DNA of 10,500 nucleotides from a virus (lineage: Duplodnaviria; Heunggongvirae; Uroviricota; Caudoviricetes). A model generated the notes under the pieces. The model was not told the origin of the DNA and ran no database searches. It saw nothing but the letters and a program-made list of their open reading frames with translations. A program made the translations under genes and the position numbers. The stretch is from IMG/VR virus record IMGVR_UViG_2703718869_000008, positions 1-10,500 of that record. One strand, written 5' to 3'. This document shows positions 4,406 to 5,860 of this stretch, one piece after another (within the stretch, counting starts at the first letter, position 1; every line of letters starts with the position of its first letter).

Positions 4406-5027
4406 ATCGATTTACAGAAACCACAGATATGAGGGCTTAAACGTGGGTAAAGAACCTGAATGGAAAGTTGATAAGCAACCAGCATGGCTGGTGGCAGCAA
4501 TACGAAGAACGATTGCTGATTTACCTCATGGCTATGAGGAAGCAGCAGAAATTCTTGGTTTGTATAAATCTGATGATATCACCCCAGCAAAAGATCAATT
4601 GCATAACAGACTGCGTAGCGGTGGGGATCAAATTTTTCCACTTGAGTGGGCCATGGTTTTACAGGATGCCAGTGGTACCAGGCATGTAACGGATGCAATA
4701 GCCCGTCGTAGTAATGGGGTGTTTGTGCCGCTGGTGGTCATTGATGACATTGACAATGGTGACATTAATCAGCGGCTGATGGAGTCAATAGAATGGATTG
4801 GCAAGCATTCCCAGTACTTACGCAAGGCAACTGCTGATGGAGTTATTGACCAAGCTGAGCGTGAGCAAATCGAAGAGAACAGCTACCAAGTAATGGCGAA
4901 GTGGCAGGAGCATTTAACACTGTTATTTCGTGTTTTTTGTGCGCCGGAAAAGAGTAACGCCCGCGAGTGTGCAGCTCCGGGCGTCGTGGCGTCGATTGCT
5001 TCTGGTTGTGGAGAAACTAACGCATGA
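4398..5027 (+). CDS. ymfL: YmfL-like putative early regulatory protein, in the position of CII.
   Basis: Track ORF 4329..5027, whose upstream part overlaps cro heavily. In-frame ATGs at 4398 (MDKSIYRNHRYEG..., overlapping the cro stop as ATGGATAA) and at 4386 are more plausible, and the choice between them is unresolved. The sequence resembles my recollection of e14 YmfL. The stop overlaps the next ATG as ATGA. Confidence 0.65.
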   Translation: MDKSIYRNHRYEGLNVGKEPEWKVDKQPAWLVAAIRRTIADLPHGYEEAAEILGLYKSDDITPAKDQLHNRLRSGGDQIFPLEWAMVLQDASGTRHVTDAIARRSNGVFVPLVVIDDIDNGDINQRLMESIEWIGKHSQYLRKATADGVIDQAEREQIEENSYQVMAKWQEHLTLLFRVFCAPEKSNARECAAPGVVASIASGCGETNA

Positions 5028-5860
5028 ACAGTTTAACGGCAAATAACCGTTTGTCGCAACAGCTGGTGTTCAGTGTCGCTGAACACCTGTTGTTACGGCA
5101 TGAATGCAGATTACCAAATCACCTGGCTGTAAGTAACCACAGAGAACTTTACCTGACTGTGGGGGGCGAGTTGTGCTGGAACTTAACCGCTGGTTTCGTG
5201 ACGGAAGAGGGCTTTATGTCCATGTTATTCGTTGGGAGCCAGAAACACAGCGCGTTATCTATCTTCGCAAAGACTACCCGCATGAGTGCTTTAGTCCTTT
5301 GTGGAAATTCAGGCGTGATTTTGTTGAGTGTGAAGGACCACCAGCACATTGATTCTGCCATTCCGGGACGTTACACTGTTCAGGCACCTTATAAAGCGGG
5401 TGTCGGGATTGGCGTCCTGGAATTGCATACGGCGACAATTGGCGCGTTAGCGTCTTTTTTGTTGCTACAACTCAGCTATACCCAAATTATGGTGGGCTGG
5501 GTGGGGGCACCGAAAGGTGCGCCGGTTTCCGTATGCGCCGGTTACGCCAACCCTGCTCAGTTCACCACCAGCGAAATTGGCGTTTCCGGTGGTGGAAGTT
5601 ATCCATTGCATACGGAGGCTGCCATCATGGCTACTGTCCCAGCCCTCTCTCGTCTGAATGATGAAGACTTACATAAACTCAGTTATGTAACAACTGCACT
5701 ACGTGCTCTGCGCAAGGTAACTCTTTCGGATCCGCAGGCGCATCAGGTTTTGGTAGAAACCCTTCTTAACTTGCAGGCTGAACGTATTCGTCTGGCGGAT
5801 AAGGCTAATTTTCATATTCACCGTCTCCTGAATATCAGCGGAGGGCATCGTCATGCTTAA
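5024..5860 (+). CDS. 278-codon ORF of uncertain authenticity. It may be a composite of several shorter coding units.
   Basis: It is the only long ORF over this span and is ATGA-coupled to the upstream gene. First-position G enrichment over 5354-5626 supports this frame there. Three points argue against a single gene: a better-supported alternative frame at 5173-5352, an internal hairpin followed by T6 at 5441-5460, and a strong internal SD GGAGG (5614-5618) plus ATG 5627 that would give a 77-aa product (MATVPALSRLNDEDLHKL...). Confidence 0.4.
   Translation: MNSLTANNRLSQQLVFSVAEHLLLRHECRLPNHLAVSNHRELYLTVGGELCWNLTAGFVTEEGFMSMLFVGSQKHSALSIFAKTTRMSALVLCGNSGVILLSVKDHQHIDSAIPGRYTVQAPYKAGVGIGVLELHTATIGALASFLLLQLSYTQIMVGWVGAPKGAPVSVCAGYANPAQFTTSEIGVSGGGSYPLHTEAAIMATVPALSRLNDEDLHKLSYVTTALRALRKVTLSDPQAHQVLVETLLNLQAERIRLADKANFHIHRLLNISGGHRHA
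5173..5352 (+). CDS. Small DUF4222-like protein (59 aa, GTG start) in the -1 frame relative to the 278-codon ORF.
   Basis: My own translation is MLELNRWFRDGRGLYVHVIRWEPETQRVIYLRKDYPHECFSPLWKFRRDFVECEGPPAH. It aligns without gaps to residues 25-70 of the product of 5853..6089, sharing W, G, V, E.Q+VI and PL..FR. A G-rich stretch (GGGGGGCGAG) lies upstream of the GTG. At 59 aa it is shorter than any ORF listed in the track. Confidence 0.55.
   Translation: MLELNRWFRDGRGLYVHVIRWEPETQRVIYLRKDYPHECFSPLWKFRRDFVECEGPPAH
5441..5463 (+). terminator. Weak terminator-like hairpin plus T-run (possible tR1 analogue) inside the 278-codon ORF.
   Basis: GGCGC-gtta-GCGTC (5 bp including one G-U pair) followed by TTTTTTGTT. 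The stem is short, so this is tentative. Confidence 0.3.

Follow-up and report, generated by a model that had tools for sequence, protein, structure and literature searches.

A 278-Codon Phage Open Reading Frame as a Probable Run-On Frame over Overlapping ymfM and DUF4222 Genes, IsrK- and C4-Type RNAs, and a 77-Residue Protein Gene

Organization of the Locus

The subject of this study is a long open reading frame (ORF) in the early region of an SfV/e14-type prophage. The stretch analyzed, hereafter the window, is 10,500 nucleotides (nt) long and comprises positions 1 to 10,500 of IMG/VR record IMGVR_UViG_2703718869_000008, a member of the Caudoviricetes. On its forward strand an open frame of 278 codons (837 nt) runs from an ATG at 5024 to a TAA at 5860, and a first-pass annotation, made from the sequence alone, had delimited the ORF correctly and had questioned whether it encodes a single protein. 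With a probability of about 0.85, we consider that there is no 278-amino-acid (278-aa) protein and that the ORF is a run-on frame over five functional units. The five parts are an N-terminal half of ymfM type, a DUF4222 gene in another frame, a small RNA (sRNA) of the IsrK type, an RNA of the C4 type, and a gene for a 77-aa protein, here called orf77 (table 1). The first-pass annotation had put forward two alternatives, overprinting and the joining of three or four separate units. The composite nature holds for the ORF as a whole and overprinting for its 5′ third only, and the middle part proved to be two known noncoding RNAs, not a protein unit.

The same DNA is present at full length in about 440 complete Escherichia coli genomes. 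Phage Ayreon is 100% identical over 5372-5650, and Shigella phage SfV carries orf77 with about 99% protein identity; in both phages the 837-nt ORF is labeled "immunity region," and a 278-aa "ash family protein" occurs in more than 100 database clusters. In near-identical prophages the RefSeq Prokaryotic Genome Annotation Pipeline (PGAP) lists ymfL, a 145-nt gap, DUF4222 (59 aa), and a 181-aa "ash family protein" that starts at a GTG at 5315. When the products were searched separately against Pfam, as the first-pass annotation had recommended, the 59-aa product matched DUF4222, the 77-aa product and the 78-aa product of the neighboring orf78 had no match, and the long ORF matched only Phage_ASH (PF10554; residues 117-209, 61 bits against a cut-off of 26, E value 1.8e-16). 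A search of NCBIfam gave no match for any product of the region.

Table 1. Coordinates of the Features Discussed, as Positions in the Window
Feature	Position	Strand	Basis or remark
Mechanical 278-codon ORF	5024..5860	+	Databases: "ash family protein"/"immunity region"; run-on frame
ymfM-type N-half	5024..5172	+	Long frame, coding; alignable to YmfM N-halves across the 30 loci
DUF4222 gene, GTG start, 59 aa, -1 frame	5173..5352	+	Pfam, phrog_1343, dN/dS, PGAP annotation
Long-frame (ymfM-frame) codons over DUF4222	5174..5352	+	Kept open; amino acids not conserved
Putative isrK promoter (-35 TTGATT 5349-5354, -10 TACACT 5372-5377, 17-nt spacer)	5349..5377	+	Sequence reading
IsrK/P4-seqA-type sRNA	5384..5460	+	Rfam RF01394, model positions 1-77 of 77
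C4/P4-CI-type antisense RNA	5485..5572	+	Rfam RF01695, full length
orf45-like leader ORF	5489..5626	+	ATG at C4 5′ end; no stop of its own; in frame with next gene
Target site GCATACGG fused to the GGAGG Shine-Dalgarno of the 77-aa gene	5608..5618	+	Motif covaries with C4 loop
orf77, independent 77-aa gene	5627..5860	+	Own Shine-Dalgarno GGAGG 5614-5618, ATG 5627-5629
orf78, 78-aa gene (phrog_1153)	5853..6089	+	Overlaps orf77 stop by 8 nt

A Probable Overlapping ymfM/DUF4222 Gene Pair

Several lines of evidence indicate that the GTG-initiated frame within the 5′ part of the ORF, which the first-pass annotation had located and had expected to be DUF4222, is a gene. First, its 59-aa product matches the Pfam family of that name (PF13973) with an E value of 1.1e-13 and a score of 50.9 bits, the cut-off being 27, aligning residues 4-52 with model positions 5-51 of 53, and it matches phrog_1343 with an E value of 5e-36. 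Second, we found 32 loci with DUF4222 relatives in many enterobacterial genera; 28 of them were analyzed together with the window and the e14 element of E. coli K-12, making 30 loci in all. The DUF4222 frame has homologs with conserved start codons across the Enterobacteriaceae, and in all 30 loci it is intact, begins with ATG, GTG, or TTG at the same position, and is preceded by a purine-rich Shine-Dalgarno sequence (SD). Third, the ratio of nonsynonymous to synonymous substitution rates (dN/dS), obtained here and below as pooled pairwise Nei-Gojobori estimates without a tree, is 0.09-0.2 in this frame across the 30 loci, with synonymous sites near saturation (proportion of synonymous differences, pS, 0.68). 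By this measure the DUF4222 frame is under strong purifying selection.

The first-pass annotation had reached the same verdict by a different route, namely a supposed paralogy between the 59-aa product and the 78-aa product of orf78. The alignment is indeed gapless in the register proposed, with 24% identity over 45 aa, but its significance is marginal (BLASTP E value 0.012; hhalign P value 0.001-0.006; PHROG cross-match E value 0.008), and the Pfam DUF4222 model did not match the 78-aa product or six of its relatives at E ≤ 1. orf78 may be a remote relative of DUF4222. Paralogy is the weakest link of that argument, and the 59-aa frame is to be regarded as coding because of the Pfam match and the comparative data. 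The claim that the two frames have equal first-position G content, 18 of 59 codons each, held for the DUF4222 frame (18/59) but not for the long frame (17/59).

AlphaFold2 predicts DUF4222 to be a small β-barrel with a predicted local distance difference test score (pLDDT) of 85.9. The fold matches of the model are weak (template modeling score about 0.6-0.67) and are to SH3-, KOW-, and Tudor-like domains; the protein is predicted to be a small SH3/KOW-like barrel. A function could not be assigned by this route, since the matches were to generic barrels with E values of at least 0.045. An antisense ORF of 70 aa (5149-5361, minus strand; 90 aa in the K-12 equivalent) overlies DUF4222. It was rejected as a gene, since the codon-aligned antisense frame is open in 19 of the 30 loci against 43% expected, which we attribute to chance.

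The long frame upstream of DUF4222 also has the properties of a gene, which the first-pass annotation had not foreseen; it had rightly placed the ymfM slot after ymfL. The ATG at 5024 is conserved and overlaps the stop codon of ymfL (GCATGA), and the codons that follow align with the N-halves of YmfM. Across the loci this part of the ymfM frame has a conserved protein sequence of at least four types, an example being MNSLTA.NRLPQLRMIPVPG.PLFRYERR.SNRWV.CNHSRA.AIVGVYYRRAKRL. In the three of four types other than that of the window, dN/dS is 0.22-0.45 in the ymfM frame versus about 1-1.8 in the other two frames. The window type is divergent and comprises three subtypes among 45 unique sequences from IMG/VR and genomes; over its last 27 codons the ratio of the proportions of nonsynonymous and synonymous differences (pN/pS) in the long frame is 0.22-0.53, from small counts in the three subtypes. 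The profile of YmfM (phrog_1170; K-12 b1148) matches the long ORF with an E value of 4e-9 over residues 48-98 only, and one database protein (P0261) consists of a window-type N-half joined to an ordinary YmfM C-end with a normal stop. Judged by alignment and substitution pattern, the long-frame codons 5′ of DUF4222 are real ymfM-type coding sequence.

Two further observations concern this segment. A perfect hairpin of 9-10 base pairs followed by TGTTGTT lies inside the N-half at 5065-5087 and was flagged as terminator-like. We rejected it as a terminator after ymfL: most near relatives have a weaker stem, the other two subtypes have a different segment in its place, and its presence is probably due to chance. 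One IMG/VR copy of 5024-5175 (L102) is frameshifted in the N-half and lacks a start codon at position 1 of DUF4222, and this copy may be decayed or an assembly error.

Within the overlap the two frames behave very differently. Over DUF4222 the ymfM frame has a dN/dS of 1.5-1.7, indistinguishable from the 1.8-1.9 of the third frame, versus 0.1-0.2 for the DUF4222 frame itself, from which it appears that the amino-acid constraint in the overlap is on DUF4222 only. Nevertheless, the ymfM frame is open over the overlap in 30 of 30 loci. For the DUF4222 protein and the codon usage found at each locus, exact dynamic programming puts the chance of this at 0.03-0.19 per locus, with a median of 0.059. 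At the sites where a synonymous change in DUF4222 would create a stop in the ymfM frame, 53 stop-making synonyms were expected over the 30 loci and none was observed, and the codons used at these sites vary (CTT, CTC, GTT, or ATT before Asn; GTT or GTC before Ile; CTC or CTT before Glu). As a control, the other sense frame is open in none of the 30 loci.

The position at which the ymfM frame ends is likewise fixed. A stop about 157 nt into DUF4222, which gives YmfM its length of 110-117 aa, is present in 28 of 30 loci and lacking in the window type. In all 28 loci of other types it is formed by a rare codon (ATA, TTA, or CTA) together with the next base, and it lies 7-10 nt 5′ of the ATG of the next gene, within that gene's SD. 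YmfM homologs remain 112-117 aa long down to 47% identity. In the window type, TGT stands in place of the usual codon, so the ymfM frame runs on, and the next long-frame stop comes only at 5860. In AlphaFold2 models of YmfM, residues 8-52 have a modest fold (pLDDT 63-73) and residues 53-112, the overlapped half, have pLDDT values below 50 and are predicted to be disordered.

In the overlap, purifying selection is seen in the DUF4222 frame, and the ymfM frame, whose dN/dS is control-like, shows strong stop avoidance and a fixed stop. We read these patterns to mean that ymfM and DUF4222 each constitute a real gene and form a conserved overlapping pair, and that YmfM would comprise an N-terminal domain and an unconstrained tail that is held open up to the ribosome-binding site of the next gene.

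An IsrK/C4 RNA Module inside the Open Reading Frame

Downstream of DUF4222 the long frame crosses two RNAs known to Rfam. The first is a full-length match to isrK (RF01394; 58.9 bits against a gathering cut-off of 50, E value 7.6e-11). It ends in an intrinsic terminator at 5441-5460, where a terminator scan also detected a hairpin (5441-5454) followed by T6 (5455-5460); the first-pass annotation had noticed this element, which is the terminator of the isrK match. A TAnnCT box lies 7-8 nt 5′ of the RNA start in diverse loci, and together with a -35 box that includes the DUF4222 stop codon it suggests a putative promoter for isrK at 5349-5377. The second RNA is C4 (RF01695; 80.7 bits against a gathering cut-off of 45, E value 5e-15), for which RNAalifold found 13 base pairs with compensatory changes on both sides in 20 loci.

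The two RNAs and orf77 are linked by a shared motif. The C4 loop CCGTATGC (5529-5536) is the exact complement of GCATACGG, which occurs as a decoy motif within IsrK (5425-5432) and again at the GGAGG SD of orf77 (5608-5615). These are the only three sites of the motif or its complement in the window, in which 0.27 other occurrences are expected by chance. For comparison we scanned IMG/VR for the C4 core, which gave 120 stretches; with other loci added, 116 usable copies were reduced to 28 representatives. Among these the C4 loop octamer, the single-stranded motif in IsrK, and the SD-fused motif change together, and at least six specificity types exist (GCATACGG, GTTATCGG, GATCAAGG, CTTATTGG, ACATTGG, and CTTCAAGG). 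Strong structure is predicted for the read-through RNA (5384-5640; z score -4.5), and its SD region is paired in the fold.

An ATG at the 5′ end of C4, retained in most loci, opens a leader ORF at the position of orf45 of the Salmonella prophage Gifsy-1. This ORF shares its frame with the downstream ATG in 16 of the 28 representatives but not in the other 12, so its in-frame join to orf77 in the window is incidental. The frame read as Ash has a pN/pS of 1.46 over IsrK and of 1.20 over orf45/C4, values that the other frames do not exceed, and the Pfam Ash match (nt 5372-5650) coincides with the two RNAs. At the founding locus of the family, phage P4 (NC_001609; L157 in our set) has a legacy RefSeq coding sequence at 8168-8584 on the minus strand, named "cI gene product (AA 1-137)" and described as a transcriptional repressor, which contains an Rfam C4 match at 8420-8507 and matches Pfam Phage_ASH. 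The Pfam "Ash" family and the PGAP "ash family protein" therefore appear to be translations of an IsrK-C4 RNA locus.

The isrK and C4 pair is also found in Citrobacter braakii (L004), in two IMG/VR sequences (L085 at 5881-6150 and L112 at 5729-5998), and in phage P4. In L085 an Rfam int-alpA RNA at 8457-8525 on the minus strand lies about 2.3 kb from the pair, which places that copy in a P4-like integrative island. Rfam scans of K-12 e14 and of one K-12-type locus found neither isrK nor C4.

The 77-Codon Gene and Its Neighbors

That the last 77 codons form a separate unit with its own SD and ATG, as the first-pass annotation had proposed, is well supported. The pN/pS of orf77 in its own frame is 0.15, and in C. 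braakii a Phage_pRha antirepressor-type module takes its place at the same ATG (a "MAT" start). There, at 2846-3997 of L004, a run-on ORF of 383 aa covers a ymfM-like N-half, the DUF4222 overlap, isrK, C4, and an in-frame Phage_pRha module. orf77 is also present in the phages SfV, Ayreon, and 2H10 and in Stx2c phages. Its PHROG matches could not be used to assign a function, as they are to uncharacterized families or carry "transcriptional regulator" labels inherited from Ash/cI annotation.

A replication-type helix-turn-helix (HTH) protein is encoded 3′ of orf78. The genes at 6086-8763 match phage Ayreon/SfV and a related prophage (L001) and encode this HTH protein, a PerC-family regulator, an N6-adenine methyltransferase, a protein with a LexA DNA-binding domain, and a RusA-type resolvase; the methyltransferase is present in L001 and not annotated in Ayreon. 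On the 5′ side, the mechanical ymfL ORF (4329-5027, from a GTG at 4329) overlaps a Cro-like gene (4205-4405) by 77 nt. Transfer of coordinates from the PGAP annotation of a relative puts the start of YmfL, a CII/CP76-like protein (phrog_101), at about 4443.

A Model for Expression of the Region

Based on these features we propose the following course of expression. The ymfM-type gene would start at the ATG at 5024, coupled to the ymfL stop, and its first 50 or so codons would form a small conserved domain. DUF4222 would be made from its own start in the -1 frame as the ymfM frame runs on above it as an unconstrained open tail, both frames being translated from the early transcript. In this phage the downstream module was probably exchanged and the ymfM stop is missing, so the frame continues.

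The promoter over the DUF4222 stop would then yield an IsrK-like sRNA ending at the hairpin and T6, and transcripts that read through would carry the C4-like RNA. By pairing with GCATACGG on the SD of orf77, the C4 loop would block that gene. In a lysogen or on superinfection, this pairing, which may extend to the IsrK/seqA-like sites, would keep orf77, orf78, and perhaps the replication genes off. IsrK, carrying the same octamer, could titrate C4 or remodel the long transcript, and so act as a decoy or activator in the manner of Gifsy-1. Translation of the leader ORF from 5489 would be coupled into orf77, the presumed regulated output of the RNA module, with orf78 and the replication gene next in line. 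Of this scheme, the units with their boundaries, the matches to families, the signatures of selection, and the covariation of loop and targets have been shown; the promoter, the direction of regulation, and the passage of ribosomes along the ymfM tail are inferred.

Alternative Explanations

A number of observations weigh against our interpretation of the ORF as a run-on frame over five units. The dN/dS estimates were pooled over pairs without a tree, so the loci are not independent, although many independent events are indicated by the saturation of synonymous sites and by the variety of codons at the risk sites. For the window-type N-half, selection was estimated from three subtypes with few substitutions, and a first estimate from a single pair was 0.8. 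A consensus promoter scan at its threshold called no promoter at 5349-5377. Finally, the long frame is unbroken in nearly all of the 45 unique window-type sequences, in all three subtypes, and among the isrK-C4 representatives the frame 5′ of the leader ORF is open across IsrK and its terminator in 22 of 28, with no amino-acid constraint. Given this openness, which includes IsrK, there may be some selection for translation through the region.

This last point bears on an explanation that is compatible with ours, namely that the long frame is translated, on transcripts from the early promoter upstream, for the sake of transit and not for a protein. Ribosomes passing from ymfM over DUF4222, the IsrK terminator, and the C4 region would suppress hairpins and so let transcription and translation in the lytic phase proceed beyond the RNA switch to orf77 and the replication genes. 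The tail of ymfM is open without amino-acid constraint, pN/pS is about 1.2-1.5 across the RNA region, and the K-12-type ymfM stop sits within the SD of the next gene, all of which would be expected if passage itself mattered. Moreover, groups of loci differ by net inserts of 39 and 45 nt that are built from pieces of +1, +1, and +37 or +43, none a multiple of three, and yet the frame is kept. On the other hand, the six most distant isrK-C4 loci contain stops, conservation of the RNA sequence alone would keep an ancestral open frame, and preservation of the frame over two indel groups has a chance value of only about 1 in 9. The openness without constraint in the ymfM tail and across IsrK does suggest that ribosome transit itself could be selected; on early transcripts it might keep the IsrK terminator from acting or melt the RNA switch. 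We regard this explanation as improbable.

Under the RefSeq/PGAP model the locus would consist of DUF4222 and the 181-aa Ash protein from the GTG at 5315, with 5028-5172 as a noncoding spacer. Near-identical prophages are annotated in this way, and the DUF4222 part is well supported. However, the supposed spacer is homologous to YmfM N-halves that are under purifying selection in that frame, and the start codon of this segment, which overlaps the ymfL stop, is conserved. The 181-aa coding sequence spans the promoter, IsrK, the terminator, and C4 and has no coding signature, for which reason we rejected the GTG at 5315 as a start. We therefore consider this model very unlikely.

Still less credible is a single 278-aa "Ash/immunity region" protein initiated at 5024, with DUF4222 overprinted and dual coding throughout. 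The ORF is open in nearly all window-type loci, has been deposited more than 100 times, and carries a highly significant Phage_ASH match. Nonetheless, that match coincides with two Rfam RNAs in a region where pN/pS is 1.2-1.5, and the founding P4 "cI" ORF of the Pfam family covers the CI RNA gene; the CI gene of P4 acts as RNA. An intrinsic terminator lies in the middle of the ORF, the C-terminal 77 aa are exchangeable at their own ATG, and orf45 and the gene after it are in different frames in 12 of 28 loci.

Equally implausible is a programmed -1 frameshift that joins the YmfM N-domain to DUF4222 in a functional fusion of about 110 aa, the open zero-frame tail being a by-product. In its favor, constraint passes from frame 0 in the N-half to frame -1 in the sequence that follows, most loci have the DUF4222 frame open over the 54 nt before its start, and sporadic in-frame fusion variants exist. 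Against it, DUF4222 has its own conserved start codon and SD in 30 of 30 loci, a canonical X XXY YYZ heptamer lies within 60 nt of the junction in 3 of 30 loci and is conserved in none, and the fusion variants differ in their junctions among near-identical E. coli sequences, as would errors or mutants. The proteins in which a YmfM N-half is fused to DUF4222 are P0237, with 14 member sequences, P0203, P0225, and P0231.

Implications

The run-on interpretation changes how a common database entry should be read, given that the same 837 nt have been deposited hundreds of times as one protein and contain two genes for proteins, a pair of regulatory RNAs, and a leader ORF. It also bears on K-12, where the gene after ymfL is listed in NC_000913.3 as ymfM only, a 112-aa "cell division inhibitor YmfM." K-12 ymfM holds in the other frame a 59-aa ORF with a TTG start that is 64% identical to the DUF4222 protein of the window, and PGAP lists DUF4222 alone at the ymfM locus of about 2,000 E. 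coli genomes, among them UTI89 and further assemblies of MG1655.

In the literature searched, the division-inhibitor phenotype credited to ymfM (SfiC) has not been assigned to either of the two overlapping frames. In the work on division inhibition (bioRxiv 10.1101/2020.11.19.390815) the ymfM ORF was cloned as DNA into pBAD24 and deleted, and we found in that work no frame-specific mutant or protein detection. By our reading, the pBAD24 clone would keep residues 1-53 of DUF4222 with its own SD and TTG. Earlier division screens recovered fragments with both frames; the region from the UTI89 screen was considered as a discriminator and set aside, as it spans ymfL, ymfM, DUF4222, and part of the replication gene. 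Both frames are present in the constructs and deletions published on filamentation, and the comparative data indicate that each of them is real, so the SfiC inhibitor may be the product of either.

Taken together, these considerations lead us to a joint hypothesis that we offer tentatively, as one that is more apt to fail than to hold in all its parts. It states that ymfM and DUF4222 are a conserved pair, that the SOS-inducible SfiC block is due wholly or partly to the embedded SH3-like DUF4222 protein, and that the ymfM frame, together with its continuation in this phage across the IsrK terminator and C4, is open mainly for ribosome transit, by which early translation would be coupled both to reading through the RNA switch and to expression of the replication genes downstream.

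Comparison with Known Systems

Most of the units described here are of known kinds, among them DUF4222, isrK, C4, and the switch of P4/P1/Gifsy type, and PGAP has already split the ORF in part. What seems to be new in the literature searched is the comparative evidence for the ymfM/DUF4222 pair, the question of the SfiC product, and the evidence that the "Ash" family corresponds to a translated RNA locus; our search of the accessible library found no paper on the ymfM/DUF4222 overlap. The window would represent a lambdoid phage of SfV/e14 type in which an RNA immunity switch of P4/P1 type, with exchangeable specificity loops, has been placed between the cII region and the replication genes.

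With regard to the gene pair, the nearest system is ymfM/sfiC of K-12 e14 (Ansari et al.), which has the same slot after ymfL, the same ATGA overlap, a homologous N-half, and an embedded DUF4222 in the same relative frame. It differs in that its stop at +157 of DUF4222 limits YmfM to 112 aa, whereas in the window that stop is absent and the N-half is of a divergent type, and e14 has no isrK/C4 module. The arrangement also resembles Rz/Rz1 of phage lambda in that two conserved ORFs share DNA in different frames, here about 157 nt. In the present pair, however, amino-acid constraint appears on DUF4222 only and the ymfM frame is constrained for openness and stop position. The likeness to Pfam Phage_ASH, which residues 117-209 match above the gathering score, is of a different nature, since the matched DNA is isrK and C4 and no purifying selection is seen at the protein level.

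With regard to the RNA module, isrK (seqA-like) and C4 (CI) stand in the same order as in the immunity region of P4 (seqA, CI RNA, seqC). As in P4 and in immI of P1/P7 (c4-icd-ant), the antisense loop is complementary to one upstream and one downstream site. In the heteroimmunity of P1 and P7 the specificity types covary, as do the loop and target types described here. These systems differ in outcome, in that P4 terminates transcription and P1 blocks translation; the copy in the window may act in either way and lies in a lambdoid genome of SfV/e14 type that also carries a switch of cI/cro type.

A further close parallel is the isrK-orf45-anrP region of Gifsy-1 of Salmonella (Hershko-Shalev et al. 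2016, PMC4825925), in which a promoter (PisrK) precedes IsrK and its terminator, read-through reaches orf45 overlapping a CI-like RNA, and an antirepressor gene is translationally coupled; IsrK was described there as a structural homolog of P4 seqA (PMC4825925). Both loci have the same Rfam isrK RNA with its own terminator, a leader ORF about 106 nt from the 5′ end of the RNA that overlaps a C4/CI-like RNA (STnc1160 in Gifsy-1), and the elements for translational coupling into the next gene, with the SD sequestered in the long transcript. Three differences set them apart. The gene that follows encodes the antirepressor AnrP in Gifsy-1, a 77-aa protein in the window, and a Rha-type module in C. 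braakii L004. In the window, the leader ORF lacks a stop and continues in frame into orf77. Finally, the Gifsy-1 module lies next to antQ, whereas that of the window belongs to the early-right operon, where cII/ymfM/DUF4222 precede it and the replication genes follow.

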